From: an uncultured Gemmatimonadota bacterium
GTDB lineage: Bacteria > Gemmatimonadota > Gemmatimonadetes > Palauibacterales > Palauibacteraceae
Length of the DNA: 64,000 bases
Assembly: GCA_964607465.1 (NCBI GenBank)
Contig: CAZSKS010000001.1
Location: forward strand, 44,420-108,419
Reading direction: 5' to 3'
Shown one piece after another: positions 6,708 through 40,845 of the stretch. The first letter of the stretch is position 1. Every line of letters starts with the position of its first letter. A program made the position numbers and the translations under genes. The notes beneath the pieces are model-generated. The model had not been told where the DNA came from and made no database searches. It worked only from the letters and a program-made list of their open reading frames with translations.

Positions 6708-6798
6708 GTAGCGTGCAATCCGGCTCCCGCCTCCGCACCGGAGTGGGAGGCGTTTCCGACCATCCTGTTTCCATTCCATCGGCCGAAGGAGGCACCTG

Positions 6799-9463: not shown

Positions 9464-9487
9464 GCGCGGGGCCGGAGGCGTGAGCCC

Positions 9488-12483: not shown

Positions 12484-12499
12484 GGATCGGGGAAGCGCG

Positions 12500-14217: not shown

Positions 14218-14236
14218 TCCACCGGAAGGGACGCAG

Positions 14237-19917: not shown

Positions 19918-20667
19918 TCAGCGGCCGCCGGCCTCGAGCCGGCGCACCGTCGCCGGCGGCAGCCGTCCACCGTACAGGGCGGTGGCCACGAGACACTCGT
20001 CGCACCCCTCCGCGGCCAACGCCCGGACGTCGGCCGCCCCCCGGATCCCGCCGCCCACGGCGAGCTCGACGCCGGGCGCGGCCGAGCGGACCGCCCGGAG
20101 GCGCTCCAGCGCCGGACCCCGCTCCGAGCCCACCCGCTCCAGGTCCAGGAGCTGAACGGTGCCGGTCCCCCGGGCGGCCGCTTCCTCCGCGGCGGCCTCG
20201 GCGGTCGACGGGGGGTCGTCGGCGGGACGCCACGCCGGCGCGTGCGGTCCCGACGCATCCACGTCGAGGCTGAACACGGTGCGATCGCGCCCCGCCGCCT
20301 CCGCGACGCGCTCCAGGTCCTCCCAGCCCTCCAGGGTCTCCAGCCCCACCACCACCTGTCGGGCGCCGACCCGCAGGAGGGCACGGGCCCGGTCCGGCCG
20401 CCGGACGGCGGCGTCCACCCGCAGGCGGTGGCCGTCCCGGGCCAGCGACTCCACCAGCGCGAGGTCGGGGGGATCGCCGGCCAGCGCGTCCAGGTCGGCC
20501 ACGTAGAGCGGACGCTCTCCCCACCGCTCCCGCAGGCGTCCGGCCAGCTCCACGGGATCGTCCGGGAAGGGGAAGCGCCGTGAGAGGGCCGGATACCGCC
20601 GGCGGTCGCCGCCGGTGGCGTGCACCACGCGGCCCTGCCGCACGTCCAGCACGGGGAGGATGATCAT
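19918..20667 (-). CDS. HisA/HisF-family (beta/alpha)8 barrel protein of methanopterin islands
   Basis: MIILPVLDVRQGRVVHATGG... and C-terminal ...VGGGIRGAADVRAL..GCDECLVATALY are typical HisA/HisF ends. The start ATG 20667-20665 lies inside the longer shadow ORF 19918-21354. Confidence 0.8.
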   Translation of the reverse strand: MIILPVLDVRQGRVVHATGGDRRRYPALSRRFPFPDDPVELAGRLRERWGERPLYVADLDALAGDPPDLALVESLARDGHRLRVDAAVRRPDRARALLRVGARQVVVGLETLEGWEDLERVAEAAGRDRTVFSLDVDASGPHAPAWRPADDPPSTAEAAAEEAAARGTGTVQLLDLERVGSERGPALERLRAVRSAAPGVELAVGGGIRGAADVRALAAEGCDECLVATALYGGRLPPATVRRLEAGGR

Positions 20668-21838
20668 CGGGACCCGCAATGTGGCGCCCCGCCTGGTGGT
20701 GTGCGAGCACTTCTCCGCCGGGGGCGGCCTCGCCGGGACCGACGCCGCCTCCACCCGGCGGGAGGGCCGCGCCATGCTCCTGGCGCTGCTGGCCGACCTG
20801 CGGGAGCTGCGGGAGGTGGACGGGCTTCCGGGAGCGTGCTCCCTCGCCGCCGTCGTCCGGCCGGAGCTCGCCTCCGCGCTGCCGCCGGGCGTCGACGCCC
20901 TGCCCGGGGACGACGATCCGGCCGCGGCCCTGGCCGGTGCGCTGGCGGACGGCGGCGGACGGGCCTGGCCGGTGGCGCCGGAGACCCGCGGGACGCTGGC
21001 CCGGCTGGTCCGGGTCGCCGAGCGCACGGGCGAAGGGGTCGTGGGGACGACCTGCCGGGGGGTGCGGCGGGCCGCCCGGCGGTGGGCGCTCCTCCGGCGC
21101 CTGGAGCGGGCCGGCGTGCCCGTGCCGCGGACCCTGCCGGCTGCCGCCGACGGGGACGCCAGGCGCGCCCTCGAGGCGCTCGGCACCCCCGTGGTCGTCA
21201 AGCCGGGCAGCGGGGCCGGCGGAGCGGGCGTCCGACGGGTGGACGACGCCGACGACGTGGCCGACGCCCGCGCCGCCGCCGCCTCCGTCGAGCCCGGGCT
21301 GGCGCCGCTGGTCCAACGGTTCGAGCCCGGAACGCCGGCCAGCGTGACCCTCATCGTGGACGGAGGGAGGGTTCGTCCGCTGGCCCTGAACCGGCAGCTC
21401 GTCCGGTTCGGGCCCGAGGCCCGCTACGAGGGCGGGATCACGCCCCTCCACCATCCGGACGCCCCCATCGCCCGGCGGACCGCTGCCGACGCCGTGCGCG
21501 CCTGCGGCGGGCTCCGCGGGCTGGTGGGCGTGGATCTCGTCCTCGGGCCGGACGGCCCGGTGGTGCTGGAGGTGAACCCGCGCCTCACCACCTCCTACCT
21601 CGGCCTCCGGCACCACCTGGGTCCGGGGCCGGCCCGCGCGGCGCTCTGCGCCTCCGGGCTCCGTCCGGCCGGTGACTCCCCGGCGTTCGATACGCTCGAC
21701 CCGTCGGCGCCCCTGACCGGCGACCCCGTGCGCTTCGGCCCCGGGGGGCGCCCGCCGGACCGTTCCGCCGACGGAGCACCCCGGGCCGCCGCCTCCCGGG
21801 CTTCCCGGACCGGGGCTGCCCGCCCCGGGACCCCGTGA
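20660..21838 (+). CDS. ATP-grasp ligase, MfnD-like (tyramine:L-glutamate ligase) candidate
   Basis: RLVVCEHFSAGGGLAG..., VVVKPGSGAGGAGV..., LVQRFEPGTPASV..., VGVDLVLGPDGPVVLEVNPRLTTSY show the ATP-grasp core. The start is ATG 20660 or GTG 20681. Confidence 0.7.
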   Translation: MIIGTRNVAPRLVVCEHFSAGGGLAGTDAASTRREGRAMLLALLADLRELREVDGLPGACSLAAVVRPELASALPPGVDALPGDDDPAAALAGALADGGGRAWPVAPETRGTLARLVRVAERTGEGVVGTTCRGVRRAARRWALLRRLERAGVPVPRTLPAAADGDARRALEALGTPVVVKPGSGAGGAGVRRVDDADDVADARAAAASVEPGLAPLVQRFEPGTPASVTLIVDGGRVRPLALNRQLVRFGPEARYEGGITPLHHPDAPIARRTAADAVRACGGLRGLVGVDLVLGPDGPVVLEVNPRLTTSYLGLRHHLGPGPARAALCASGLRPAGDSPAFDTLDPSAPLTGDPVRFGPGGRPPDRSADGAPRAAASRASRTGAARPGTP

Positions 21839-22962
21839 GCTCCGGCGGCTGGCTGGGCCTGGACGTCGGGGGCGCCAACCTGAAATACGCCGTGGCCGAG
21901 GACGCCCGGTCGCCCCGCCTCGTCACCTCCGGGCTGCTCCCCTTCGAGCTGTGGCGCGACCCCGCGGTCCTCCCCGAAAGGCTCCGGGAGGTGGCACGGC
22001 GGGTCGGCGAGGCCCCGCGGCGGACGGGGAGCGCGGATGCCCGGGCGACCGGGCCGGGGGCTTCCGACGCGACAGGGACGGCGGCTACCGACCCCTCCCG
22101 GGTGGCCCTGACCCTGACCGCCGAGCTGGCGGACTGCTTCCCGAGCCGCGCCGCCGGCGTCCGCCGGATCGTGGACGCGGTGACGTCCACCTGGCCATCG
22201 GCCACCTGCCGGGTGTGGAGCTCCGACGGCGGCTGGCGGGATCCCGACCGGGCGCGGGCCGCTCCGGGGGAGGTCGCCGCCGCGAACTGGTTGGCGCCGG
22301 CCACGTGGCTGGCCCGCCGGGGCCGGAACGTGCTCCTCGGCGACCTGGGGAGCACGACCACGGACCTGGTCCCCGTGCGGTCCGGCCGCGCCGGCACCGA
22401 GGCCCGGACCGATCTGGAGCGCCTGCGGGCCGGCGAGCTCGTCTACACGGGCCTCCTCCGCACCCCGGTCTGCGCCCTGGTGGAGGAGGTGGAACTGCCG
22501 TCCGGCCCCGTGCCGGTGGCGGCGGAGCTGTTCGCCGTCTCGGCCGACGTCCACCTGTGGCTCGGCAGCCTGACCCCCGACGGGTACCGGTGCGAGCCGC
22601 CGGACGGAGGTGCCCGGACGCGGGAGGGGGCCGGCCGTCGGCTGGCCCGGATGCTGTGCTCGGACCCGGAGGAGCTGGGCGTGCCGGCGATCACGGCGCT
22701 GGCCGAGCGGGCGGCCGACGCCCAGGCGGCGCTGGTCCGCCGGGCGGTCCGCAGCCAGCGGGCGCGGCCGGGGAGCGACGTCCCGCGGACGGCCTGCTGC
22801 ACCGGGGCCGGCGCCGACCTCCTGGCGGCCTGGCTCCGGCGGGCCGGCCTGGAGGTAGTCCGGGATCCGCCCGCTCCCCTCGCCGGCCCGCACGCCGCGG
22901 CGTCCACCGCCTGCACCCTGGCCCTGCTGGCGCTGGAGGACCACGGGGACGACGGGTCGTGA
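21835..22962 (+). CDS. hydantoinase/oxoprolinase-fold 'H4MPT-linked C1 transfer pathway' protein, MfnF-like candidate
   Basis: GWLGLDVGGANLKYAV...LWRDP...LTLTAELADCF is the N-terminus of that family. GTGA overlaps on both sides. Confidence 0.72.
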   Translation: MSSGGWLGLDVGGANLKYAVAEDARSPRLVTSGLLPFELWRDPAVLPERLREVARRVGEAPRRTGSADARATGPGASDATGTAATDPSRVALTLTAELADCFPSRAAGVRRIVDAVTSTWPSATCRVWSSDGGWRDPDRARAAPGEVAAANWLAPATWLARRGRNVLLGDLGSTTTDLVPVRSGRAGTEARTDLERLRAGELVYTGLLRTPVCALVEEVELPSGPVPVAAELFAVSADVHLWLGSLTPDGYRCEPPDGGARTREGAGRRLARMLCSDPEELGVPAITALAERAADAQAALVRRAVRSQRARPGSDVPRTACCTGAGADLLAAWLRRAGLEVVRDPPAPLAGPHAAASTACTLALLALEDHGDDGS

Positions 22963-24274: not shown

Positions 24275-25477
24275 TCAGAAGAAGAGCATCAGGCCGCCCG
24301 AGAGGACGATGGAGCTGTTCTTCTCGGTGGCGTCCACGTCGTCGTCGGACCACGTGTAGCTGCCTTCGCCGACCACCATCAGCGACTCGGTGGCCTGGGC
24401 GTAGATGCCGCCCGTGAGCGAGCTGTTCGAGGTCTCGAACTCGGGCTCGTCGTCGGCCGCCTCGATGATGCTCTCACCGTAGCTCAGCCCCAGCGTCACG
24501 TCGCTACCCTCGGGGGTCACCGTCGCCTGCCCGATGTACCCGTAGCTGGGACGCAGGTCGGTCGAGCCCGTGGCGCTCCGGGCGCCGGCGAACATCAGCG
24601 TGGTGCCGATGCCGGTGCCGTAGTAGCCCGAGCCCGTCAGCGAGAAGACCTCGCCGCCGTACTGCAGGCCGCCCGAGATGCCCGCCGACGTGGCCGACTC
24701 GTCGAGGTCGGTGTCCTTCTGGGTCTGCAGGAGCCCGCCGGCCCAGAACATCACGTCACCCGAGCTGTAGGTGAACTCGCTCTCCAGGCGCGGCAGCGTC
24801 GTCTCGTCGAAGCCGTTGTGCGTGTCAGGATCGAACAGCGCGACCGTGAACTGCGCCGGGTTCTCCGAGGGCGTGCTGTAGGCGATCTGGGCGTTGAAGT
24901 TCGGATACACGTAGCCGAACCCGATCCGGCCCAGCGTGGTGCCGCCCGGATCGGCGAAGTTGCCGCCCGTGGCGCCGACCCCGGTGAGGGTCATGTCGGT
25001 GAGGATGTTCTGCCGCTGGAACACGCCGATGGCGCGGCCGGCCAGGATCTGGCCGAAGTCCCCGCCCACGGTCATGTAGACCTCGCGCATGTCGATCTGC
25101 GCGCCGGCCTGGGTGCCGTTGCCGAAGTTGTCGTGCCCGCCGGGCGTCTGGATCTGCGGCGCGAAGCCGAAGTGGACCCCGAGATCGAGCCCGCCCTCCT
25201 GGCCGTTGGCCTCGAAGGTGGCGAAGGTGGGCAGGAGACCCGTCCGCACCGTGCTGCCCTGGGCGTCCGTCCCCACCAGGGCGAACGGGCTCCCGATCTC
25301 GCCGTCCTCCGACGCCGACTCGAAGACCCAGAACGCGTTCACGTTGCCCGTGAACGTGAACGACCATCCGTCGTCCGCCGTCACGGTCACCTGGGCGTCG
25401 GCCGGCTGCGTTCCCAGCAGCAGGAACATGAAGCAGGCCGCGACGATCGCCAGCAAGCTCTTGTTACGCAATGACAT
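24275..25477 (-). CDS. outer-membrane beta-barrel porin
   Basis: Signal peptide MSLRNKSLLAIVAACFMFLLLGTQPADAQ, alternating beta-strand pattern, and a C-terminal ...GGLMLFF aromatic terminus. SD is AAGGAGG. Confidence 0.75.
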   Translation of the reverse strand: MSLRNKSLLAIVAACFMFLLLGTQPADAQVTVTADDGWSFTFTGNVNAFWVFESASEDGEIGSPFALVGTDAQGSTVRTGLLPTFATFEANGQEGGLDLGVHFGFAPQIQTPGGHDNFGNGTQAGAQIDMREVYMTVGGDFGQILAGRAIGVFQRQNILTDMTLTGVGATGGNFADPGGTTLGRIGFGYVYPNFNAQIAYSTPSENPAQFTVALFDPDTHNGFDETTLPRLESEFTYSSGDVMFWAGGLLQTQKDTDLDESATSAGISGGLQYGGEVFSLTGSGYYGTGIGTTLMFAGARSATGSTDLRPSYGYIGQATVTPEGSDVTLGLSYGESIIEAADDEPEFETSNSSLTGGIYAQATESLMVVGEGSYTWSDDDVDATEKNSSIVLSGGLMLFF

Positions 25478-25669
25478 GGTCCACCCCTCCTTTGGCGTGA
25501 AGAGCCCCCCGGCGACGGACGCAGAGCGTCCCGTCCGCCGGCAGACATCACTAGCTTCAGCCTCAATCCACCCCAAGGTAATGGTTCGCCGGCCAAAGGT
25601 GAAGACGTGTCTACTATGTCGATAGTAATACGCGAGCCCCCCCGGGGAGGGCCGGCGGACGGTCTCGCC

Positions 25670-27847
25670 TCATCCGCCGAAGCCGCGCCGGACCACGATC
25701 CGGAACGACCGCGGGGTCACCGGGGTCATGAAACGGTCCAGCTCTTCGGTGAGGCCGTTCTCGTTGAAGGTGCCGAAAGTGGCCGCGTCCGAGTCGAACA
25801 CGTTGCTGACGATCCCCTGGACGGTCCAGTCGCCGAAATCGTAGGCCAGCCGGGCGTCGGACAGGAAGTAGGAGTCCAGCGGGTCGGTCTCGTTCGCCTC
25901 GTCCCCCCGCATCCACTGCTCGCCGAAGAACCGGGCGTCGACGCCCGCCGTGAACCCGTCGAGGAAGTGGAGCCTGCCGCCCGCCTTGAGCTGATGGGAG
26001 GGGACCAGCGGGAGCTCGTCCCCCGCCTGGACGTCGTTGGGACCGGCCAGGGGATGGCCGTCGAACTCCTCGTCGGCCCGGATGCTGAACAGCTCGGGGG
26101 CATCCGACTGGAAGGTGGCGTGCGTGTAGGCGTAGTTGAGGTACATGCTGCCGCGGTCGCCGACGAGGGTCTGCATCGACAGCTCGACCCCCTCCCTCCG
26201 GGTGTCCTCCAGGTTGGCGAAGAAGCCCTCCACCAGGCTCTCCTCCGACGCGATGAAGAAGATCTCGTTCTCCACGTCCGTGGTGTAGAGGGAGGCGGTG
26301 AGGACCGCCGGACCCGCGGCCCACTGTCCCCCGACCTCGTAGGTGGTGGCCTTCACGGGATCCAGGGGCGGATCGTCCCCCAGCGCGAAGGGAAGCGGGC
26401 AGGCGTCCTCGGGATCGGCGCACGCCAGCTCGAGGATCGCCGGGGCCCGGAAGCTGGTGCCCACCGACGCGTAGGCCGACGCGCCGCGTCCGAGATCGAC
26501 GCTGATCCCGCCCCTGGGGCTCAGCTCCCGGAAGGTGCTGGTCGTGTCGGCCGTCGGATCCAGCCGGTTCTCGAAGGGGACGCGGACGTGGTCGTACCGC
26601 GCGCCGCCCGACAGGATGACGCGTCCCAGCTCGACGTCGACCAGGCCGTAAGCGGCCAGGTCCAGGCTGGGGCTCCCCACGTCCGTCGTGAGGTTCGACT
26701 CGTCCGTGCCCCGCGGCTCCTCGAAGATCCGGATGTCCGACCAGCTGGCCGTGCCGTCCACGCCGAACCGGACCCTGAGCGGGAGCTCCCCGATCCGCGC
26801 CGGATGACGGAGGTCCGCCGTGCCCCCGACCGAGTGGTTCGTGGTGAGCTGGCGGACGTCCGCCTCGGGGGGCTGGTTGACGTTGAAGCGCTCGGCCTCG
26901 GATCGCCGGTAGTAGAGCGTGCCCGAGCCGCGGCCCTCGCCGACGGGCACGTACCCGGTGCCGGAGAGCTGCTGGAGGTTCAGGTCCTCGAAGTCACCGG
27001 CCGTGAAGTTCACCTCCGGATCCATCCGGAAGATGCTCAGCGGCAGGGACCCGGCGGTCTCGGCCCGGGACGTCGAGGCCAGGCCCTGGAACGCGATGCC
27101 CCGCTCCGGACCCCGGTGGTCGACGTTGACGAACCCGTTGTAGCCCTCGGCGGAGGTGGCCTCGCGCCAGCCGTCCATCCGCTCGTATCCGCCGGCCGCG
27201 TAGTAAGACCAGCCGTCCACGGCGCCGCTGATCGCCCCCTCCGCGGACGCTGTGCCGTGGGAGCCCCCCGTCACCTCGAGCTCCCCCTCCGTGGCCCGAT
27301 CGCCCCGCTCGGTGATGAGGTTGATGGCGCCCCCGAGGGAGTTGGGCCCCAGCAGGGATGCCGTCCCCCTCAGCACCTCCACCCGCTCCACGTGCTCCAG
27401 GGGGAGGAGGTCGAAGTTCACCTCCTGGGCGTCGGGCTCGTTCTGCCGGATGCCGTCCAGGAACACCGTGATCCCCGGTGGGAGCCCCACCGTCGGTCCC
27501 ACGTTGAAGCCCCTGGCGCTCACGTTGATCTTGAAGGGGGAACCGAGGTCGTCATAGGAGGAGATCCCCGGCTCCCGGACGAGGGCGTCCGAGAGGAGCG
27601 CGGGCTCCCACGCCTCGATCTCCTCCCCCTCGATGGTCGTCACGCGGGCGGGGACGCCCGAGCGGACGTCCGGCCGGGCGGTGGGGACCACGGAGGTGAC
27701 CACCTCCAGCGGTTCGATCTCCACCACCGTGGTGTCCGACGGCACGGTGTCGGCCTGCTGCGCCGCCGCCCCGGCGGGCAGCGCCCCGGCCAGCAGGCAG
27801 CACGCGACGAGCGCGAGCGAGCAGCGGATCGTATACGACGTCGACAT
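25670..27847 (-). CDS. TonB-dependent receptor (TBDR-1)
   Basis: Signal peptide, then a plug region (ARVTTIEGEEIEAWEP...LVREPGISSYD..., VFLDGIRQNEPDAQEVNFDLLPLEHVERVEVLRGTASLLGPNSLGGAINLIT) and a long barrel. No N-terminal signalling extension is seen. SD is GGAAGGAG. Confidence 0.9.
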   Translation of the reverse strand: MSTSYTIRCSLALVACCLLAGALPAGAAAQQADTVPSDTTVVEIEPLEVVTSVVPTARPDVRSGVPARVTTIEGEEIEAWEPALLSDALVREPGISSYDDLGSPFKINVSARGFNVGPTVGLPPGITVFLDGIRQNEPDAQEVNFDLLPLEHVERVEVLRGTASLLGPNSLGGAINLITERGDRATEGELEVTGGSHGTASAEGAISGAVDGWSYYAAGGYERMDGWREATSAEGYNGFVNVDHRGPERGIAFQGLASTSRAETAGSLPLSIFRMDPEVNFTAGDFEDLNLQQLSGTGYVPVGEGRGSGTLYYRRSEAERFNVNQPPEADVRQLTTNHSVGGTADLRHPARIGELPLRVRFGVDGTASWSDIRIFEEPRGTDESNLTTDVGSPSLDLAAYGLVDVELGRVILSGGARYDHVRVPFENRLDPTADTTSTFRELSPRGGISVDLGRGASAYASVGTSFRAPAILELACADPEDACPLPFALGDDPPLDPVKATTYEVGGQWAAGPAVLTASLYTTDVENEIFFIASEESLVEGFFANLEDTRREGVELSMQTLVGDRGSMYLNYAYTHATFQSDAPELFSIRADEEFDGHPLAGPNDVQAGDELPLVPSHQLKAGGRLHFLDGFTAGVDARFFGEQWMRGDEANETDPLDSYFLSDARLAYDFGDWTVQGIVSNVFDSDAATFGTFNENGLTEELDRFMTPVTPRSFRIVVRRGFGG

Positions 27848-27882: not shown

Positions 27883-28857
27883 TCATCGGTTCGCCCCGTC
27901 CTCCCGGTCCTCCTCCAGGGGGGTGGTGCGGATGGCCCGCAGCCGGTCGCCGGGACTCAGCCGACCGTCCCCCGTCTCGTCCTCGTAGAGCACCGCCAGG
28001 GCCACGCGCTCCCCGTCGCCCGCCAGCACGAAGATCCCGTCGTCGGCGCGGGGACCGCCGTCCAGGTCGGCGCAGCAGCGATCCAGCTGGCGGACGCCGT
28101 GCGACGACCCGTTCGGAGCCCGCGGCGCGGGCTCGCCGTCCACGACCGTCCGGAGCAGATCGCCCTCGGAGAAGCTCCCCGTCCCGTCCCGGTCCTCGTA
28201 GATCCAGAAGCTGACGACGGCCTCGCCCTGCCCCGCCACGACGCGCACGCCGTCGTCGGCGGGCCCCCCGCCGTCGTAGTCCAGGCAGCAGAAGTCCCGG
28301 AGCACCGCCGGTCCCCGCGCCGAGGCGAAGCGGGCCGCCCCCGGGACGGGGCTCCGGCAGGCGAGCCGATCTCCCTCTCGGCCGCAGCGCAGCCCGCGAC
28401 CCTCCGTCTCCCCGAGCCCCGACACGCCGGTTCCCAGCGCCAGCACCCGTGCGTCCGGCCCCCACCGGAGGGCGAACCGCTGCTCCGTCTCCGCCTGCGG
28501 CCCCGCTTCCGGCGCCGCCGTCCGGGCGGGCGCCGCCCCGTCGCCCCCACCCCCGGGGCCGGCCCGCGCCAGGAGCCCGACGGCCGCGATCAGGACGAGC
28601 ACGGCGGCGGCGCGGACGGCGTCCCGCGGGGCCGCCCGACGGCGGAACCACGAGCGCCGATCCCCGGCCCGGGTTCCGGCCTCCCGGTCCTCTCGGGGCA
28701 GGGCCTCCAGCACCTCGGCCTCGAGCCCCGACCGGGGGGGATCGAAGCGGGCTCGACGGAGCCGCTCATCGATTTCGCGCAGCTCCGGAGGGAGCCCACC
28801 CTCGGGCCCCTCCGACGTCCCGTCGCCGCCGTCTCCCGGCCGTCCGTCCTCGGTCAT
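27883..28857 (-). CDS. membrane-anchored anti-sigma factor candidate with duplicated periplasmic CC/EF-hand-like module
   Basis: It lies downstream of the ECF sigma gene on the same strand. It has an acidic cytoplasmic N-terminus, one TM helix (AVRAAAVLVLIAAVGLLA) and a periplasmic region containing two copies of a roughly 57-aa module. The start is ATG 28857 (SD GAGG) or GTG 28902. Confidence 0.6.
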   Translation of the reverse strand: MTEDGRPGDGGDGTSEGPEGGLPPELREIDERLRRARFDPPRSGLEAEVLEALPREDREAGTRAGDRRSWFRRRAAPRDAVRAAAVLVLIAAVGLLARAGPGGGGDGAAPARTAAPEAGPQAETEQRFALRWGPDARVLALGTGVSGLGETEGRGLRCGREGDRLACRSPVPGAARFASARGPAVLRDFCCLDYDGGGPADDGVRVVAGQGEAVVSFWIYEDRDGTGSFSEGDLLRTVVDGEPAPRAPNGSSHGVRQLDRCCADLDGGPRADDGIFVLAGDGERVALAVLYEDETGDGRLSPGDRLRAIRTTPLEEDREDGANR

Positions 28858-29000
28858 GGATGCCTCGTCGCGGGCATGAGCCTCTACCGGCGTGTCCCTC
28901 ACCTTCTCACCCCGACATTCGCCCGCGGCGAGGGGATCGTTACACGGACGTGGAAAACCGTCGGGAGAGGGGAGGATCCGGCGAGGGGGGAGATCCCGCG

Positions 29001-29078: not shown

Positions 29079-29699
29079 CTAGCTGCCCTCCAGCTCCTCC
29101 CGCAGGGCCCGCAGGACGCGGTGGAGGCGCGTCCGCACGGCAGCCGGCGAGGTCTCCAGGAGGCGGGCGATCCTCCGGCTGGACAGCCCGGCCCCGTAGG
29201 CCAGGGCCACCAGGTCGCGGTCGGCCCGGGGGAGCTCCCAGACGGCCTCCAGGAGCCGTCGGCGCCGCTCCTCCCGGAGGGCCTCGTCCTCCGGGCTCGG
29301 TCCGGGCGCCGCCAGACCCTCCAGGTCCGTCGGGTCCAGGGCCTCCGGGTCCCGTGCCCTCCTCCGACGCTCGCGGCGCAGCACGTTCCGCGCGATGCCG
29401 AGCAGCCACGACTCCACGCTCCCCCGCTCCGGATCATAGTCGTCGCTGGAGCGCCACGCCTCGAGGAACACGTCCGACACCACGGCTTCGGCGGACGCCC
29501 GGTCGCCCGACCGCCACCGCGCGTAGCGGTACACCCGATCCGCGTGGCGACGATACCAGAAGCGGATCGTCTCGACGGAAGGATCCCCCCCGGGGTGCGA
29601 CCCGCCCGGATCCGCCCGGGAGGGGGACGACGCGGAACCCTCGCCGCGTCCCGGAGCGGGCTCCGGGCCCTGGCCGGGCCGGCGGCCGGAGTGGTTCAC
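29079..29699 (-). CDS. ECF (sigma-70 family group IV) sigma factor
   Basis: Region 2 (RFWYRRHADRVYRYARWRSGDRASAEAVVSDVFLEAW...ESWLLGIARNV) and region 4 (LPRADRDLVALAYGAGLSSRRIARLLETSPAAVRTRLHRV). No start codon is available between V23 (GTG 29699) and region 2, so the N-terminus carries a low-complexity extension. Confidence 0.85.
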   Translation of the reverse strand: MNHSGRRPGQGPEPAPGRGEGSASSPSRADPGGSHPGGDPSVETIRFWYRRHADRVYRYARWRSGDRASAEAVVSDVFLEAWRSSDDYDPERGSVESWLLGIARNVLRRERRRRARDPEALDPTDLEGLAAPGPSPEDEALREERRRRLLEAVWELPRADRDLVALAYGAGLSSRRIARLLETSPAAVRTRLHRVLRALREELEGS

Positions 29700-29721
29700 G
29701 CGGCGCGCGGGACCGGGGCCC

Positions 29722-30300
29722 TCATCCCGTGGGCAGGAGCCAGCGATGCAGCGCGGCGACCGCACGGGGGAGGATGACGTCGCGCTGGCCCTTCAGCTCG
29801 ATGGCCTCCTGGCCCACGACCTTCCCCGAGGCCACGTCCTCGTGCTCCACCACGAGGTACCAGATCAGGTTGCTCACCTTGATGACTCGACCCCTGAAGA
29901 CGTGCTCCACGCCGGCGGAGCGCGCGGCCTCCCGGGCGCAGGCTCCGCTGTCGCAGCCGGTGCTTCCGGACCGGACCCGGGACCGGGCTTCTTCGAACTG
30001 CTCCATCGTCACCAGCGTGAACCGCCCGTCGTCCTGAAGGCGCTCCCGGAGCATGCGGGCCGCGTCGATGGCCACCCGGGTGATCTCCTCCCCCTCCTCG
30101 TCCGGGTTGACGCTCTTGTCCAGGGTCTGGAAGTCCAGCACCAGCACCTTCTGTCGATCGGCCGGATCGGGGGACCCGTCCGTCGATGCCGGAGCCTGCT
30201 GACCCGTGGCCGGGACCGGCACGGACGCCAGGGTCAGGAGGATGCCTACGGAGAAGACGGCCTGGGGGATCGAACGCACGGCGAACCGGGAGAGCTTCAT
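29722..30300 (-). CDS. secreted protein of unknown function (DUF3280/DUF2380-like by memory)
   Basis: Signal peptide MKLSRFAVRSIPQAVFSVGILLTLASVPVPATGQQ, then VLVLDFQTLDKS..., GCDSGACAREAARSAGVEHVFRGRVIKVSNLIWYLVVEHEDVASGKVV. It is the first gene of the sigma/anti-sigma/TBDR-1 string. Confidence 0.6.
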   Translation of the reverse strand: MKLSRFAVRSIPQAVFSVGILLTLASVPVPATGQQAPASTDGSPDPADRQKVLVLDFQTLDKSVNPDEEGEEITRVAIDAARMLRERLQDDGRFTLVTMEQFEEARSRVRSGSTGCDSGACAREAARSAGVEHVFRGRVIKVSNLIWYLVVEHEDVASGKVVGQEAIELKGQRDVILPRAVAALHRWLLPTG

Positions 30301-30398: not shown

Positions 30399-30494
30399 TC
30401 GTTGGTGGGGGACGGCCAGCCGTCCTCCGCGCGGCGGAGTCGCCCTGTGTCGCACAGCCAGCTTTCGAACACGACGAGAGCAGGAGAACGGAAA

Positions 30495-32669
30495 GTGCTT
30501 CGACCCCACCGAGCCTTCCATCGTCGACAGGTATCTACCCTTCCCGACCGCGATGGGTTCGGGAGCCCGGTCCGCACCGTTGCCACGGCCCTGGTGGCGG
30601 TGGTGACGGCGGCGCTCGCCGGGGCCTGGGTCGCCCCCCTGGAGGCCCAGCAGGAGGACCTCCCGGCGGCCGACACCGTCACGCTGGAGGAGCTGACGGT
30701 GACGGTGACCCGGGTCGAGACGGAGATCCAGCGGGCCCCGGAGACGGTCTCGGTGCTGGGCGCGGAGACCGTGACGCAGGGGGAGCGGGGGGTCTCCCTG
30801 GAGGAGGCGCTCCGCCACGTGCCGGGCGTCTACGTCCAGAACCGGAGGAACTTCTCCCTCGGCGACCGGGTGACCGTGCGGGGCGTGGGAGCCAGGGCCC
30901 AGTTCGGCGTCCGCGGGGTCCAGATCCTCATGGACGGGATCCCGCTCACCATGCCCGACGGCCAGGCCGTCGTCGATCCCGTGGACCTGAACGCGGTGGG
31001 ACGCGTGGAGATCATCCGGGGTCCGGCCTCCACCCTGTACGGCAACGCGGCCGGGGGGGTCATCAGCTATCAGACCCGGGATCCGTGGCGCGGATCGTTC
31101 CGGACCGAGCCCGACGTGAGCTTCGGGAGCCATGGCTACCAGAAGTCCGTGATCGGAGCCTCGGGCACCTCGGGCGATCTCGGATGGCGGCTCTCGGCCC
31201 AGCGTATGGAGACCGACGGCTTCCGGCGGAACGCCGGAGCGGAGGTCTATCACGGCAACCTGGTCACCGACGTCGGGCTCTCCGAGGACACCCGGCTGAC
31301 CGGCATCGTGAACGTCTTCCACACCCCCTTCGCGGAGAATCCGAGCGGGCTTACGCGCAATGACGCCATCGAGAATCCCACGATGGCCCGTGACCTCATC
31401 GTTCAGATGGGGGCCGGCCAGGAGACCACCCACGGACAGGGGGGGCTCGCCCTGGACCACCGCTTCAGCGAGGACCACCGGATGAAGCTCGCCGGCTGGA
31501 TGACGCTGCGGGACATCCGAAACCCCATCCCCTTCCGCATCATCGACCTGGACAGGACCGCGGGCGGCGTCCGCTCCCAGTACGAGGGAAGCACCCGCAT
31601 GGGCGACGTTCCGGTCCGGTGGGCGACGGGCGTGGACGTCGGAATCCAGAGCGACGACCGAAGGGAGTTCGTGAACGAGCAGATCGGGTCGGGCGACCGG
31701 GCCCGGGCCGGTGACCTGCTGCTGGACCAGCGGGAGCGGGTGACGAGCTTCGGCCCCTTCGCGCGGATCGACCTGGATCTCCTGCCACGATGGCGTCTCA
31801 CGCTGGGGGGACGCTACGATCGCTTCGAGTTCGACATCGAGGACCGCTTTCTCGAGGACGGGGACGACTCCGGCGACCGCACGCTGGAGGAGTTCAGCCC
31901 CATGGTCGGGCTGACCTATTCCCCCCATTCGGCCCTGAGCATCTACGGCAACTACGCGACCTCCTTCGAGACCCCCACCGCCAGCGAGTTCTCCAACCGG
32001 CCGGACGGCAGCGGCGGGCTCAACCCCGAGCTCGGCGCCGCGGACACCGACAGCTACGAGCTCGGCGTGAAGGGGTGGTCCGAAGAGGCGGGCATCCAGT
32101 ACGGGCTCGCCGTCTACACGGCCGACGTGAGCGGCGCCCTGGTCCCCTTCTCCGATCCCACGGAGCAGATCTTCTTCCGCAACGCCGGCGAGATCTCCCG
32201 TACGGGCGTCGAGACCAGCCTGGCTTGGAGGCCGACGTCCTCCCTCCAGTGGCGGCTCTCCCATACGTACCAGGACTCCGAGTTCGAGGAGTTCACGCCG
32301 GAGGGCGAGGACTTCAGCGGGAACCGCGAGCCCGGCGTGCCCGAGCATCAGCTCACCGCGGGGGTCAGCTACACGGCGCCCTTCGGGCTCACCTCGGAGG
32401 CGGACGTCCGTTGGGTGGACGCCTATCCCGTGAACGACGCCAACACCGCCTCCAACTGGGCCCACAGGATCGTGGACTTCCGCTTCTCCATGGACCGGCC
32501 GATCGACCTGGGGAGGACCGGCCTGCACCCCTTCCTGGGGATCGACAACGTCTTCGACGAGCGCTACAACGCCGGGGTGACCCCCAACGCGTTCGGGGGT
32601 CGGTTCTACGAGCCCGCTCCCGGCACCACGGTGTACGGCGGCCTGTCGGTCTCCCTCTCCTACCGCTGA
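30495..32669 (+). CDS. TonB-dependent receptor (TBDR-2)
   Basis: Signal peptide (...VATALVAVVTAALAGAWVAPLEAQQ) and plug (VTVTRVETEIQRAPETVSVL..., QILMDGIPLTMPDGQAVVDPVDLNAVGRVEIIRGPASTLYGNAAGGVISYQT). GTG 30495 with an upstream GGAGAA was chosen; the ORF opens at 30402. Confidence 0.88.
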   Translation: MLRPHRAFHRRQVSTLPDRDGFGSPVRTVATALVAVVTAALAGAWVAPLEAQQEDLPAADTVTLEELTVTVTRVETEIQRAPETVSVLGAETVTQGERGVSLEEALRHVPGVYVQNRRNFSLGDRVTVRGVGARAQFGVRGVQILMDGIPLTMPDGQAVVDPVDLNAVGRVEIIRGPASTLYGNAAGGVISYQTRDPWRGSFRTEPDVSFGSHGYQKSVIGASGTSGDLGWRLSAQRMETDGFRRNAGAEVYHGNLVTDVGLSEDTRLTGIVNVFHTPFAENPSGLTRNDAIENPTMARDLIVQMGAGQETTHGQGGLALDHRFSEDHRMKLAGWMTLRDIRNPIPFRIIDLDRTAGGVRSQYEGSTRMGDVPVRWATGVDVGIQSDDRREFVNEQIGSGDRARAGDLLLDQRERVTSFGPFARIDLDLLPRWRLTLGGRYDRFEFDIEDRFLEDGDDSGDRTLEEFSPMVGLTYSPHSALSIYGNYATSFETPTASEFSNRPDGSGGLNPELGAADTDSYELGVKGWSEEAGIQYGLAVYTADVSGALVPFSDPTEQIFFRNAGEISRTGVETSLAWRPTSSLQWRLSHTYQDSEFEEFTPEGEDFSGNREPGVPEHQLTAGVSYTAPFGLTSEADVRWVDAYPVNDANTASNWAHRIVDFRFSMDRPIDLGRTGLHPFLGIDNVFDERYNAGVTPNAFGGRFYEPAPGTTVYGGLSVSLSYR

Positions 32670-33488: not shown

Positions 33489-34499
33489 CTACGGGCCGCC
33501 CGCTTCGGTCCCAACGGCGGGCCCCGGCGTGATGGCCACCCCCCAGGGGAGCTCGCCCACCGGGATCCTGGCGACCTCCTCCAGCGACTCCGTGTCGATC
33601 ACCGACACGTCGCCGCTCTGCCCGTTGGCGGAGTAGAGCCGGCTGCCGTCGGGCGTCAGGTCGATGCCCCAGGGACGCTGGCCCACCGCCACCTCGGCCA
33701 CCGTCTCCAGCGACTCGGTGTCGAAGACGACGACCCGGTCCGCCTCCCCGTCGGCCACGTACACGCGGGCTCCGTCCGGCGAGACGACGACCCCCACCGG
33801 CTTCGCGGACTGCCCCCCCTCGCCCACCAGCAGGGTCTCGACGACCTCGTGGCTCTCCACGTCCACCACCGACAGGTCGCCGCCGACCTCGCCGGACACG
33901 TAGGCGCGGGAGCCGTCCGGGGAGAAGGCCACCCCGCGCGGCCGGTTGCCCACCCGGAAGCTGCCGGCCGTCTCCCGGTTCTCGGTGTCGATGACGGTGA
34001 TGGTGTGGCTGCTCTCCGAGGTGACGTAGACCCACCGGCCGTCCGGGCTCACGCCCACCCCCTCGGGCTCGATGCCCACCTCGTAGGTCTCCGTCACCTC
34101 GCCGCTGGCGATGTCGATGGACGAGGCGGTGCCCACGTCCTCGTTGGAGACGTAGATCGTGCTGCCGTCGGGGCTCACCGCGAACTGCTCGGGGTCCGAG
34201 CCGGCGTCGATCTTCTTGAGCACCTCGTTGGTGGCCACGTCGATGACGGCGATGGCGTCCTCGTTGCTGACCGCCACGTAGATGCGGTCTCCGTCGGGGC
34301 CGGCCTGGATGCCCCGCGGCCGGTCACCCGCCGGGACCGTGGCCACCACCTCCTCGGTCACCGTGGAGATCACGCTCACGTCGTCGCCCGCCTCGTTGCT
34401 GACGTAGGCCAGCGGACCCTCGGGAATCGACTCCCCGCAGCCGAGGAGGAACAGCGATCCGAGCAGCAGCGGGGCGGTCAGCCATCTTCGGAGAGACAT
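33489..34499 (-). CDS. YVTN-repeat beta-propeller lipoprotein (PQQ-dehydrogenase-associated type)
   Basis: Lipobox LFLLGC-G. Six or seven repeats of the P.G...SPDG...YV.N.....V.VID type, and the C-terminal PWGVAI typical of the propeller genes found next to quinoprotein dehydrogenases. SD GAGGTGA precedes ATG 34499. Confidence 0.85.
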   Translation of the reverse strand: MSLRRWLTAPLLLGSLFLLGCGESIPEGPLAYVSNEAGDDVSVISTVTEEVVATVPAGDRPRGIQAGPDGDRIYVAVSNEDAIAVIDVATNEVLKKIDAGSDPEQFAVSPDGSTIYVSNEDVGTASSIDIASGEVTETYEVGIEPEGVGVSPDGRWVYVTSESSHTITVIDTENRETAGSFRVGNRPRGVAFSPDGSRAYVSGEVGGDLSVVDVESHEVVETLLVGEGGQSAKPVGVVVSPDGARVYVADGEADRVVVFDTESLETVAEVAVGQRPWGIDLTPDGSRLYSANGQSGDVSVIDTESLEEVARIPVGELPWGVAITPGPAVGTEAGGP

Positions 34500-34607
34500 C
34501 GTCGTCACCTCGTCGTCGAAGGTTCGATCTGCGTCATGGACCTCGTGTCCCGAGTTCCGGGAGACCGCACGGATCCGCTCCCGTGAGCGGGAACGGCCGG
34601 GCCCGCG

Positions 34608-36811: not shown

Positions 36812-38422
36812 CTACCCGTCCCGGCAGTGCGTGGCGCTGTCGACGACCGCCGCTTCGGCCCGATCGGCCCCGGGGTCCGTCGGCTCCGTGGCGGGCTCGT
36901 CGCGCTCCGACGGGGCCTCGTCACCCTCCTGCGCGGTCCGGTCCTCCTCCTGGCCCTCGTCTCCCTCGGCACCGTTCCCGTCCTCCTCGGACGGGGCCTC
37001 GTCGGCCGGCGGCGCCTCGGGTCGGCCGGCGGGCAGGCCCTCCGTCCGGGCCGCGATGTACTCGTAGATGGCGTTGGCCTTCTCGTCGTCGAGCAGCGCG
37101 TTCCAGGCCGGCATCCCCTTGTCGGGCCGCCCCTGCATGACCGTGATCGTGAAGCTGTCCTGCGTGAACCCCTCCCGGTTCACGGCCTGCAGCAGGCCCG
37201 GGGCGATGGTCGACCCCGTGCCCGCCTCGCCGTGGCAGCGGACGCAGTGGACCATGAACTGACGCCAGCCCGTGTAGACCGTCTCGCTCACCGGCGTGTC
37301 CTGCGCCGTCGCGGGCGGGGCGTGGACGAGATCGGCCGGGGAGACCGCCGCCAGCGCGCCGCCGGCGGACGGTGCCGGAGAGCCGCCCCGGGACGCCACC
37401 TCCGCCCGCGGACCGCCTCCCGCGCCGTAGGGGCTGCCGAGAGAGGCGGCGGGACCGGTGCTCCCCCGGGTGCTCTCCCGGCGCCCGTCGTCCCCGCCGG
37501 AGGCGTCCTGTCCTCCGCGCTCGATGGGCAGGAGGGGGACGTGGAATTCCTCCTCCAGGATGCGGTAGATCTCCTCCTGGTTCTCCTCGATGACCCTCTC
37601 GAGCCGGGCCTGCCACTCCCCCTCACCGCGGCGGACCCCCAGGGACATGTTGTAGGCCAGGGGGAAGCCCGTGCTGTCGTCCACCGCCGGCAGGGCCTTC
37701 ATCTCGAGTGCGACGTCCTGGCGCTGGCTCCAGTAGCCGGCCACCGGCCCCCACACGATGGCCAGCTCCACGTCACCGTTGGCCACCGCGTACACGATCT
37801 CCTTCGGCGGGCTGTCCTCGTCGTAGTCGCCGTAGACCGTGAAGCCCTTGACGTTGCTCACGATCCCCCGGGCTCCCAGCGCGTGGGCCGGCGGGGGGTT
37901 CATGTAGTCGTCCCCGATCAGGTTCACGCCGATCTGCAGGTCCCGCAGGACGGGATCGTCGAGGGAGCTCACCTCGAAATCGGCGTCGGCCCGGTAGAGG
38001 AAGACGTAGGGCGAGCGGTAGAACGGCGCGGTGGACTGGAGGATGTCGTAGCCCTCGGGCACGCCGAAGATGACGTCGCACTTGTTCTCCTTCAGCGTGT
38101 TGCGGACGAAGCCGCGGTGCTGCCGCCACCAGGTGTAGCTGACGGAGGAGAGCCCCATCTCCTCGGCGAACAACTCGGCCAGCCGGTTGTGGAATCCTTC
38201 CTCCGCCCGGTTGGAGAACGGCAGGTTGTTCGGGTCGGCGCAGACCCGCAGCTCGTCCGCCTCCTGGAGCGCCGTCGCGTTCGCGTCCGGCGTCGTCTCG
38301 GCCGCCTCGGCTGGCAGGTGCGCTCCCTGCTCCGGCATCTGTGCCACGCCCAGCCCGGAGACGATCCCCAGGACGAGGACGGCGACTCCGGCGTACAGCT
38401 TATCTCCCATGGTCGTCACCAT
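36812..38422 (-). CDS. XoxJ/MxaJ-like periplasmic binding protein fused to a C-terminal monohaem c-type cytochrome and an acidic tail
   Basis: The N-terminal domain (LRVCADPNNLPFSNRAEEGFHNRLAELFAEEMG...YTWWRQHRGFVRNTLKENKCDVIFGVPEGYD...APFYRSPYVFLY) is MoxJ-like. A roughly 75-aa Gly/Ser/Ala linker follows, then CVRCH (Cys codon 37246-37244) and KGMPAW (Met ligand), then a roughly 65-aa D/E-rich tail. It is one uninterrupted frame. The start is ATG 38422 or 38410. Confidence 0.8.
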   Translation of the reverse strand: MVTTMGDKLYAGVAVLVLGIVSGLGVAQMPEQGAHLPAEAAETTPDANATALQEADELRVCADPNNLPFSNRAEEGFHNRLAELFAEEMGLSSVSYTWWRQHRGFVRNTLKENKCDVIFGVPEGYDILQSTAPFYRSPYVFLYRADADFEVSSLDDPVLRDLQIGVNLIGDDYMNPPPAHALGARGIVSNVKGFTVYGDYDEDSPPKEIVYAVANGDVELAIVWGPVAGYWSQRQDVALEMKALPAVDDSTGFPLAYNMSLGVRRGEGEWQARLERVIEENQEEIYRILEEEFHVPLLPIERGGQDASGGDDGRRESTRGSTGPAASLGSPYGAGGGPRAEVASRGGSPAPSAGGALAAVSPADLVHAPPATAQDTPVSETVYTGWRQFMVHCVRCHGEAGTGSTIAPGLLQAVNREGFTQDSFTITVMQGRPDKGMPAWNALLDDEKANAIYEYIAARTEGLPAGRPEAPPADEAPSEEDGNGAEGDEGQEEDRTAQEGDEAPSERDEPATEPTDPGADRAEAAVVDSATHCRDG

Positions 38423-38585
38423 CTGCCTCTCGCTCTGCCTGTCGTGGAGTGATCGTGTCGTCATGAAGGTACCCGCTGCGGGCGGGTTTGCTCCGGGATG
38501 TGCCCTCCGCCCGCGGAGGCCGGTCGACCGGCCCCGGCCTTCCTCGCAATAAAGTAGTAGCTGGATGGCGGGCGTGCACACGAAA

Positions 38586-38622
38586 GCCCCCCTCGCCCAC
38601 GTTCGAGTGGCGCGAGAGGGGC
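38586..38622 (-). terminator. hairpin downstream of xoxF (partial terminator candidate)
   Basis: The minus strand has GCCCCUCUCGC, a 15-nt loop, GCGAGGGGGGC, then CUUUCG: an 11-bp stem with one G-U pair. It lies about 70 nt after the xoxF stop. Confidence 0.45.
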
Positions 38623-38694
38623 TCCGTGTGAGCCCTGCCGCCGGTCAGGAGCCGCTGATGGGCCTGCCCTGCCGGCTCAGATGCTCAGCCGCCC

Positions 38695-40557: not shown

Positions 40558-40845
40558 GAGGGTCCTCCGGCAAAAGTTCGAGGATCGTGAGACCAGGAGA
40601 GCCCACCCCTCCCGTCCGTCTCCGACCGGCATGTGTCAAACATACCGTACGATCGTGCGGCTGACGAGCCGTCCCGACGCACCGCCCGAGTCGCCGTACG
40701 GAACCGCGGATCGGTCCGCCGCCGCTTTCACCAGCCGAGGACCGGCTGGCTTCAATCTGATCGAAAGCGTAATGATGGGGTCGAGAGATGTCAACGGCGC
40801 AGCGTTCCGCCGGACGGCCGGCCACGGAAAGGTCGACGAGATACG

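Follow-up and report, generated by a model that had tools for sequence, protein, structure and literature searches.

A candidate anti-sigma factor with a tandem acidic-loop ectodomain in a methylotrophy island of Gemmatimonadota

The protein and its tandem module

The 64,000-nucleotide stretch of DNA analyzed here (the window) is a methylotrophy island in a Gemmatimonadota genome. Positions 27883-28857 encode a 324-aa protein that is very probably, judging from its sequence and gene context, the anti-sigma factor of the extracytoplasmic function (ECF) sigma factor encoded upstream. The protein combines a short cytoplasmic segment, a transmembrane helix, and an ectodomain that carries two copies of a module with a cysteine pair (CC), an acidic turn and a 12-residue acidic loop. 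This ectodomain is an undescribed domain family, and the cytoplasmic motif and an associated promoter-like motif are likewise new within the databases and literature searched. The G+C content of the window is about 72%, and long spurious open reading frames (ORFs) overlap the region of the gene; nevertheless, the N-terminus, MT(D/E)D, is identical in 11 of 11 close homologues, and this common start fixes the gene at 27883-28857. The same translation was given in an earlier reading of this DNA (the original prediction), in which the coordinates of both loops and both modules are also correct. The features of the protein are as follows.

27883..28857 (-), whole ORF of 324 aa, encoding a candidate membrane-anchored anti-sigma factor with a tandem CC-module ectodomain (long form); based on translation and homologue alignment
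28693..28794 (-), cytoplasmic segment, aa 22-55, with two to three short predicted helices; presumed sigma-binding part
28564..28629 (-), transmembrane helix, aa 77-98, a helix in the AlphaFold2 model, with the Arg-rich sequence RRSWFRRR directly before it
28309..28494 (-), extra beta segment, aa 122-183, in the long form only, with AlphaFold2 strands at aa 128-132, 137-142, 154-161 and 164-168
28138..28308 (-), module A, aa 184-240, with four predicted beta strands
28285..28290 (-), CC pair of module A, C190/C191, invariant in 123/123 aligned proteins
28249..28281 (-), acidic turn of module A, DYDGGGPADDG, aa 193-203, joining strands 1 and 2
28159..28194 (-), loop A, DRDGTGSFSEGD, aa 222-233, joining strands 3 and 4 and preceded by the invariant residues Y220-E221
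27928..28098 (-), module B, aa 254-310, the second copy of the module
28072..28077 (-), CC pair of module B, C261/C262, invariant in 123/123
28036..28068 (-), acidic turn of module B, DLDGGPRADDG, aa 264-274, with D266, D272 and D273 invariant and D264, G267 and G268 nearly so
27946..27981 (-), loop B, DETGDGRLSPGD, aa 293-304, retained by the 11 long-form relatives

The conserved cytoplasmic part is short, at only about 35-40 aa, and has the consensus LPPELRxLDxxLRxVRFxPRxxLxxEV (also written LPPELRxhDxxLRxxRFxPRxxLxxEV), in which L33, F38, P40/41 and R42 are invariant or nearly so in the alignment. AlphaFold2 places helices at aa 24-35, 45-52 and 55-62. The translation contains no Cys or His in aa 1-76, and the HxxxCxxC motif of zinc-binding anti-sigma (ZAS) domains is therefore absent, as the original prediction had noted; the single transmembrane helix that it proposed is also found, as one long helix at aa 77-98 of the AlphaFold2 model. 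By the positive-inside rule, the N-terminus would be cytoplasmic and the C-terminus would lie outside. The linker at aa 101-121 is disordered in the AlphaFold2 models.

Between the membrane and module A lies a beta segment of about 60 aa (aa 122-183) that is absent from the short forms of the family and has no detectable relation to the CC module. In the long-form alignment, W132, D135-V138, C158 and C167 are invariant in this segment. The two cysteines, which the original prediction had missed, form a probable hairpin disulfide. Reading aa 122-183 as a degenerate third copy of the module, with a disulfide hairpin where the loop would be, is unsupported (hhalign probability 1%).

The modules are about 55 aa in size and together occupy nt 27928-28308. 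In a BLASTP comparison of the two C-terminal halves, aa 188-238 align with aa 259-309 at 27/51 identities (53%, E 1e-15), which bears out the internal duplication described in the original prediction, and the CC pair, the DxDGGxxADDG turn and the 12-residue acidic loop that it listed are present in each copy. Loop A consists of the residues D-R-D-G-T-G-S-F-S-E-G-D and loop B of D-E-T-G-D-G-R-L-S-P-G-D. Each loop has three carboxylates, with an invariant Glu immediately before it, and the net charge is -8 for module A and -4 for module B. Within the approximately 16,400 aa that the window is likely to encode, a relaxed EF-loop pattern has two matches; both fall in the 324-aa protein, and the loops are thus not chance occurrences.

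Fold, distribution and conservation of the family

AlphaFold2 was run on a 123-sequence alignment, both for the whole protein and for aa 181-316. In both models, each module consists of four beta strands, with the CC pair at the end of strand 1, and the ectodomain is devoid of helices of four or more residues. In module A, a strand at aa 214-221 leads into the loop and another strand begins at aa 234; in module B, the loop connects strands at aa 285-292 and aa 305-311. As the 12-residue loops sit between beta strands, they are not helix-loop-helix EF-hands. In Foldseek comparisons with PDB structures, the lowest E value was 0.4 when the full-length model was the query and 0.57 when the two-module model was used, and no TM-score exceeded 0.27. 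The top matches, which include antibody Fabs, propeller blades and OspA sheets, are all too weak, and none of these folds was assigned. The AlphaFold and Foldseek comparison suggested with the original prediction thus argues against a helix-loop-helix arrangement and also leaves the domain without a known fold.

Sequence-based searches give a similar picture. Pfam searches with the 324-aa protein and all 123 aligned members, at E values up to 10, returned nothing consistent and no family for the ectodomain. Pfam EF-hand models do not match the 324-aa protein, and among the 123 relatives EF-hand_6 is found in two and EF-hand_5 in one, all weakly. When a module profile built from 50 diverse modules was compared with all PDB sequences, the sole match was to calmodulin EF loops (E 0.0038, 20 bits), a weak resemblance that is limited to the loop region of the module. 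A PROSITE-type EF-hand pattern fails in both loops and matches 40 of 264 relatives; the breaks are caused by Phe at position 8 of loop A and by Thr at position 3 and Arg at position 13 of loop B. The strict Dx[DN]xDG motif is also broken, by Thr at position 5 in loop A (DRDGTG) and Thr at position 3 in loop B (DETGDG). The loops do have the oxygen-bearing side chains of EF-hand ligands at positions 1, 3, 5, 9 and 12, and their position 8 is hydrophobic, but flanking helices, matches to curated models, the bidentate Glu at position 12 (here Asp) and a conserved Gly at position 6 are missing. A fair label would be an EF-hand-like or DxDxDG-like acidic loop in a predicted beta context. Given the lack of a Pfam or NCBIfam match and of a PDB fold match at E < 0.1, the statement in the original prediction that this is not a described family still stands. 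A literature search found no paper joining ECF sigma, Gemmatimonadetes, anti-sigma and TonB-dependent, and the main text of the ECF reclassification paper is silent on Gemmatimonadetes.

A search with the single sequence found 17 relatives, comprising 11 long forms (about 315 aa) and 6 short forms (about 190-210 aa, lacking aa ~100-183), and with a profile search the family grew to 589 clusters (90% identity), of which nearly all are short forms. All source names given for these clusters read 'hypothetical protein', the named sources are Gemmatimonadota metagenome-assembled genomes, and no precomputed Pfam domain is present. An exhaustive HMMER scan of 1.84 billion representatives yielded 161 representatives (50% identity) at E <= 1e-3, and in a scan of one genome per GTDB species, relatives occur in 125 genomes. 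Loci from 80 of these 125 genomes were returned, and 79 of them carry a Gemmatimonadota label, mostly Gemmatimonadales; the remaining one, L078, is titled only 'uncultured bacterium'. In the genomes searched so far, the family is confined to Gemmatimonadota.

Conservation was evaluated in 123 aligned family members, and for the first loop also in a wider set of 214. Twenty positions are invariant in the 123 proteins: D188, C190/C191, D195, G196, G197, D201, D202, G203, Y220, E221, D222, D224, D233, C261/C262, D266, D272, D273 and R307. The turn of module A accounts for six of them (D195 to G197 and D201 to G203), and its D193 is kept in 122/123. In the first loop, the family consensus of which starts D-x-D-G-S-[GR], Asp occupies positions 1, 3 and 12 in 100% of the 123 proteins, position 5 is S/T/N/D, position 8 is hydrophobic (F/L/Y/W) and position 9 is T/S. 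In the set of 214 relatives, the corresponding values are 100% for Asp at position 1, 93% for Asp at position 3, 98% for S/T/D/N at position 5, 95% for T/S at position 9 and 97% for Asp at position 12.

The cysteines follow a pattern of their own. Almost every ectodomain in the family has an even number of Cys residues (2, 4 or 6), consistent with disulfides in the periplasm. In 24 single-module proteins, some of which may be truncated, the CC pair provides the only ectodomain Cys residues (full-length examples are P0183 and P0200), and a vicinal or an intermolecular disulfide are therefore options in such proteins. A third subfamily (P0178, P0181, P0196 and P0251) has an RF-type N-terminus, the long-form insert and one module. 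That module keeps the CC pair and the EF-like loop and has lost the DxDGGG..ADDG turn, as in CCDRREFTGPREG, so the two acidic elements can be lost independently.

Gene neighborhood and the anti-sigma assignment

The genes and the motif that accompany the 324-aa protein are the following.

29079..29765 (-), ECF sigma factor ORF, with a true start that is probably internal, near 29576; Sigma70_r2 E 9e-17, Sigma70_r4_2 E 2e-10, TIGR02937 E 1e-26
28917..28943 (-), ECF-type promoter-like motif GTAACG-N16-CGAAT, 60 nt before the ATG of the anti-sigma candidate, in the 221-nt gap that follows the sigma gene
25670..27847 (-), TonB-dependent receptor 'TBDR1', 725 aa, with Plug and barrel, starting 35 nt past the stop codon of the anti-sigma candidate
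24275..25576 (-), porin-like outer-membrane protein, 433 aa, with a signal peptide and the C-terminal sequence ...LMLFF; no Pfam or NCBIfam family

An adjacent ECF sigma gene and a single-pass topology are general attributes of anti-sigma factors, and both are found here. The strongest argument for the assignment is domain shuffling, in which the same module is fused to canonical ZAS domains. In 34 fetched relatives, one or two CC modules occur behind an HxxxCxxC anti-sigma N-terminus and a transmembrane helix; three of these proteins score at or above the zf-HC2 gathering threshold of 22.2 bits (P0157, 28.5 bits; P0200, 25.2 bits; and P0195), and every ZAS-type locus that was looked up directly follows an ECF sigma gene. 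Synteny points the same way. In tblastn searches, a sigma gene, a family member and a TBDR1 orthologue occur in this order and in the same orientation in essentially every sufficiently long locus of the 80. The sigma orthologues upstream of the family member are 33-48% identical to that of the window in almost all short-form loci and 70-95% identical in long-form loci. The TBDR1 orthologues are the best conserved of the three genes, at 45-66% identity; in the distant locus L002, for example, the receptor is 53% identical and the sigma factor 40%. A 4-bp overlap joins the sigma gene to that of the family member in the short-form loci L002-L005. The anti-sigma identity put forward in the original prediction is thus upheld by the upstream ECF sigma gene, by synteny in about 80 genomes and by the fusion of the module to zf-HC2 in relatives, and the genomic context suggests that it is the cytoplasmic segment that would bind the sigma factor.

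TBDR1 has a signal peptide of about 29 aa and a Plug domain from aa 65, with no N-terminal signalling (STN) domain, which makes classical cell-surface signalling unlikely. At aa ~474-500 it shares with the product of L078 10209-12458 the motif ELACADxxDxCPLP(F/Y)xLGxDPPLDP, which contains two conserved cysteines. The motif is kept even between the approximately 33%-identical receptors of RF-type and ZAS-type cassettes, and it could serve as a ligand site or form a disulfide within a loop. Only in the long-form clade (L001, L008 and L088) is the receptor gene immediately followed by the porin-like gene. A terminator-like hairpin is present at 24284-24301, at the end of this gene, which is probably the last of the operon in that clade. 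On the other side of the sigma gene, between it and a PqqU-like receptor gene, 29722-30300 (-) encodes a DUF3280 (PF11684) protein with a signal peptide, and such a gene occupies the same position in L001, L010 and L089.

K-mer enrichment upstream of the sigma genes revealed the motif TGTGAC-N16-CGTA(T) in 48 short-form loci. It occurs once per locus, on the coding (+) strand, with fixed spacing, some 100 nt upstream of where the sigma match begins, and it is essentially absent elsewhere in these 48 loci (20 kb each). In these properties it looks like an autoregulated ECF promoter of the three-gene operon. In the window, the related sequence GTAACG-N16-CGAAT is unique within the 64 kb (0.48 matches are expected by chance), and it lies instead between the sigma and anti-sigma genes. 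It is present in this gap in all five long-form loci (the window, L001, L010, L088 and L089), where it forms a conserved island in diverged flanks. A promoter-like motif inside the gap would account for its unusual length of 221 nt. This arrangement points to the genes for the anti-sigma factor, the receptor and the porin-like protein as targets of the sigma factor in the long-form clade, where the sigma gene itself may no longer be autoregulated, the motif having moved.

Several known systems bear comparison with this cassette. Like class I (ZAS/zf-HC2) anti-sigma factors of the RsrA, ChrR and RslA types, the protein is encoded after an ECF sigma gene and consists of a cytoplasmic segment, one transmembrane helix and an extracytoplasmic sensor, and its relatives bear the same ectodomain behind a real HxxxCxxC domain. 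It differs from them in that its own cytoplasmic part has neither Cys nor His, no above-cutoff match and no similarity to ZAS profiles; as no zf-HC2 match is found in it, the protein falls outside class I. FecI-FecR-FecA systems, including mluARI of Methylorubrum extorquens (PMC11317620), share the unit of sigma factor, membrane anti-sigma factor and TonB receptor, with the receptor presumably a target of the sigma factor. Unlike in FecIRA, there is no FecR/DUF4974 domain here and no STN domain in the receptor, and the tandem beta module that forms the ectodomain is unrelated.

CnrYXH of Cupriavidus metallidurans is similar in concept, with a periplasmic metal site and a very short cytoplasmic anti-sigma segment, although no homology is claimed. 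In that system two proteins divide the work, CnrX as sensor and CnrY as anti-sigma factor, and CnrX is helical and coordinates Ni/Co via His and Met; in the protein of the window, sensor and anti-sigma factor would be in one chain, with proposed oxygen ligands. With the EF-hand or Dx[DN]xDG loops of calmodulin, dockerin and integrin FG-GAP blades (PMC3123361), the loops share the 12-residue ligand pattern at positions 1, 3, 5, 8, 9 and 12; they differ in their predicted strand-loop-strand setting, in Asp at position 12, in the broken strict motif and in the lack of a Pfam EF-hand match. The likeness to lanmodulin consists of periplasmic acidic 12-residue loops and, in the window context, a lanthanide-type XoxF. 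PMC10875860 notes the 'lanthanide-specific proline residues' of lanmodulin. The protein of the window lacks Pro at position 2 (Arg or Glu here, and Pro in 7/214 relatives), has fewer carboxylates per loop (Ser at position 9 of both loops, Thr at position 5 of loop A and Thr at position 3 of loop B), has two loops rather than four and has a predicted beta fold. With Asp rather than Glu at position 12 as well, the lanmodulin-like lanthanide site suggested by the original prediction is not indicated.

Methylotrophy context and competing explanations

The cassette lies among the following genes of the methylotrophy island.

6712-7314 (+), fae, tetrahydromethanopterin-linked C1 pathway
9464-14217 (+), fhcB, fhcD and fhcC, tetrahydromethanopterin-linked C1 pathway
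13898-15220 (+), mch, tetrahydromethanopterin-linked C1 pathway
20615-22962 (+), ATP-grasp ligase and TIGR03123 'H4MPT-linked C1 transfer' protein
30402-32669 (+), PqqU-like TonB-dependent receptor, a full-length match to E. coli PqqU (6V81, E 2e-78)
33489-34607 (-), segment listed beside the XoxJ-like/cytochrome fusion at 36812-38644
36812-38644 (-), MoxJ/XoxJ-like substrate-binding protein (TIGR03871, above cutoff) with a C-terminal c-type cytochrome, a 610-aa fusion
38695-40635 (-), XoxF-type methanol dehydrogenase dependent on pyrroloquinoline quinone (PQQ), matching the lanthanide-dependent XoxF structures 6DAM, 4MAE and 6OC5 at E ~1e-214
40591-42393 (+), pabB

XoxF carries the motif DEWDYDG, with the extra Asp of lanthanide enzymes, the product of 36812-38644 looks like a XoxJ-XoxG fusion, and a TIGR03866 beta-propeller is also among the genes of the island. 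PqqU and XoxF3 are common in Gemmatimonadetes (PMC12124388; PMC10875860). The signature residues of PqqU are Y/F/W99, R304 and R365 (PMC12124388), and the receptor at 30402-32669 has all three (F168 for Y99, R370 for R304 and R420 for R365), which makes it a likely PQQ importer. TBDR1 lacks the signature, with V120, a 10-residue deletion and I372 at these positions, as mapped with moderate confidence via the PqqU-like receptor, to which it is only about 26% identical. With PQQ import covered by the signature-bearing receptor, lanthanide import is the obvious missing function of the island.

Related cassettes elsewhere have partly similar surroundings. The PqqU-like receptor gene adjoins the cassette in L001 and L089, and PqqU-like receptors are also encoded near the ZAS-type cassettes of L078 and L090. 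A gene for beta-RFAP synthase (beta-ribofuranosylaminobenzene 5'-phosphate synthase; TIGR00144, above cutoff) is present at L006 3-980, L078 8067-9092 and L090 7-930, and on these three independent contigs this gene of methanopterin biosynthesis is followed by sigma factor, ZAS-CC anti-sigma factor and receptor. L078 also holds pabB and a TIGR03123 homologue. In L092 (6014-7931), a sigma gene and a single-module ZAS-CC anti-sigma gene of the P0240 subfamily precede genes for a GSDH-type (PF07995) putative PQQ dehydrogenase and a cytochrome c; the gene after the anti-sigma factor is thus the putative dehydrogenase and not a TonB receptor, which lies further along. A general linkage between the cassette and methylotrophy was considered and rejected: when 16 markers were compared with 89 loci, only the lineage of the window and L001 and the ZAS-type loci L006 and L078 were linked, with L090 added later, and none of the 16 markers was found by tblastn within 10 kb of the cassette in about 75 short-form loci. 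The window context and the beta-RFAP-linked relatives nevertheless lend some indirect support to a connection with lanthanides or PQQ enzymes.

The explanation favored here, with a little more confidence than an even chance would imply, is that the protein is a single-pass anti-sigma factor with an ectodomain that binds a hard cation, likely Ca2+, and whose occupancy or a related cue controls sigma release. The invariance of the acidic loops makes a cation the obvious candidate ligand, and, as far as their residues can tell, they probably bind a metal such as Ca2+. In this mechanism, the cytoplasmic helical segment (aa ~22-62) would hold the sigma factor and would be connected by the one transmembrane helix to a periplasmic sensor of two beta modules. 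The invariant acidic turns and the loop of the first module would bind the cation, most likely Ca2+, through oxygen ligands at EF-hand positions 1, 3, 5, 9 and 12, with the second loop contributing in the long-form clade. A folded, metal-loaded, disulfide-bonded ectodomain would keep the sigma factor sequestered; changed cation occupancy, or a related periplasmic cue, would alter its stability or conformation, and the freed sigma factor would then transcribe the genes for the anti-sigma factor, TBDR1 and, in the long-form clade, the porin-like protein from GT(G/A)AC-N16/17-CG(T/A)AT.

A number of observations weigh against this cation-responsive anti-sigma factor. The cytoplasmic segment has no homology to solved or curated anti-sigma domains (hhalign probability 0.2% against the N-termini of ZAS relatives and no match among PDB sequences), and the notion that its RFxPRASL portion is a degenerate ZAS domain was discarded on the same values. 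The only NCBIfam hit is NF052375 'anti-sigma factor', at 13-18 bits against a cutoff of 100; its weak alignments cover model positions ~49-119, past the zinc finger, and are a hint only. The gap of 221 nt between the sigma and anti-sigma genes in the clade of the window departs from the usual overlap. Confidence in the AlphaFold2 models is moderate, with a mean pLDDT of 71 and a pTM of 0.57 for the whole protein and a mean pLDDT of 74 and a pTM of 0.70 for aa 181-316. Gly at position 6 of the first loop is kept in only 42-44% of relatives, and most short forms have a substituted or missing second loop (Arg takes the place of D293 in 88/123 proteins and D304 is kept in 17/123), so that both loops are present in only 23 of the 174 proteins with two CC motifs. 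The low frequency of Gly at position 6 and the dispensability of the second loop mean that metal binding may be purely structural. Together with the flanking strands and the Asp at position 12, they also make the description of the loops as canonical-looking EF-hands, given in the original prediction, untenable. Of the conservation of acidic loop residues in homologues, which was to be checked, the part concerning the first loop is secure, with positions 1, 3 and 12 near-invariant, and the part concerning the second loop is not.

A purely structural role would mean that the acidic loops hold structural Ca2+ only, and that the signal is receptor occupancy or TonB coupling, an envelope or nutrient stress that acts by regulated proteolysis, or a small organic ligand bound between the modules. 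This is unlikely but deserves serious consideration. Calcium loops of the Dx[DN]xDG type have structural roles in at least 12 unrelated folds (PMC3123361), and besides the dispensable second loop, the tightest conserved partner of the cassette is the receptor, above sigma and anti-sigma factor. Set against this are the lack of an N-terminal signalling domain in TBDR1 and the invariance across subfamilies of the first loop and both DxDGGGxADDG turns, as would be expected of a ligand site. The CC pairs, invariant in every module of every subfamily, raise another option, in which they sense periplasmic redox state or thiols, or bind Cu/Zn, and the acidic loops are secondary. The 24 single-module proteins in which the CC pair has no conventional intramolecular disulfide partner could be read in this way, as could the CADxxxxCPLP motif kept in TBDR1 orthologues. 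However, the even Cys counts in nearly all ectodomains fit plain structural disulfides, the position of CC at a beta-strand end in the AlphaFold2 models would turn its side chains to opposite sides, and there are no conserved His or Met partners; sensing by the cysteines is accordingly considered improbable. It is more improbable still that the protein is not an anti-sigma factor at all, and is instead a membrane-tethered periplasmic accessory or cargo protein of TBDR1, such as a substrate receiver, merely co-transcribed with the sigma gene. The short cytoplasmic segment without detectable anti-sigma homology would suit such a role, and small periplasmic lanthanide-binding proteins have been predicted to dock on TonB receptors (bioRxiv 10.64898/2026.07.10.737718). 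Yet at least 34 relatives carry this ectodomain behind a bona fide zf-HC2 domain, and those looked up follow an ECF sigma gene; sigma/anti-sigma pairs typically show the kind of 4-bp gene overlap seen in the short forms, and the cytoplasmic motif is itself conserved.

The identity of the cation is a related question. It may be that the tandem ectodomain senses the metal cofactor of a PQQ enzyme, either Ln3+ or Ln3+ versus Ca2+, and switches TBDR1, a lanthanide or lanthanophore importer supplying XoxF, so that the cassette would be a lanthanide-acquisition regulon of Gemmatimonadota; this must be regarded as doubtful. EF-type loops generally bind Ln3+ more tightly than Ca2+. The location of the cassette in an island with a lanthanide-type XoxF would fit, as would the division of labor between the PqqU-signature receptor and TBDR1, the beta-RFAP-linked cassettes of L006, L078 and L090 (two of the three with a PqqU-like receptor nearby) and the putative PQQ enzyme and cytochrome c of L092. 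Precedent is provided by TonB receptors that import lanthanides and by mluARI, a receptor/anti-sigma/sigma set for methylolanthanin uptake (PMC11317620), and candidate lanthanide receptors are PqqU-like but lack the PQQ-binding residues (bioRxiv 10.64898/2026.07.10.737718). The same preprint lists five lanthanide receptors confirmed by experiment (WP_060849375.1, WP_235726409.1, WP_244426899.1, WP_245268181.1 and WP_003609830.1). TBDR1, however, is only distantly related to the PqqU-like receptor, the methylotrophy markers are missing around the short-form cassettes, and the loops lack the lanmodulin hallmarks, with Ser/Thr rather than Asp at position 9 and Asp rather than Glu at position 12 in addition to the rarity of Pro at position 2. 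The promoter motif was not found upstream of xoxF or the PqqU-like gene in the window, and free periplasmic lanthanide has so far not been demonstrated (PMC11317620).

ECF sigma/anti-sigma pairs that control TonB receptors are well known, but their periplasmic sensor domains are few and mostly FecR-like. What is new here is an unannotated sensor domain that is attached to two unrelated cytoplasmic anti-sigma segments; an ECF sigma gene always accompanies it, and in nearly all cases so does the gene for one orthologous receptor. The occurrence of such cassettes among XoxF, PqqU and methanopterin genes in several lineages makes this a candidate lanthanide- or calcium-sensing step in non-proteobacterial methylotrophs. 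If lanthanides were indeed sensed, both the mechanism and the binding fold would be unrelated to lanmodulin, lanpepsy and the two-component 'lanthanide switch'; if the metal is only structural, a little-studied phylum of soil bacteria has still gained a regulon, a promoter motif and a previously undescribed domain family. The soluble domain comprises only about 130 aa, so the idea of a cation ligand is directly testable and tractable by experiment. Among the single-module ZAS-type loci, two have a PepSY-domain gene nearby, namely those of P0200 (L007) and P0240 (L091 10678-11847).

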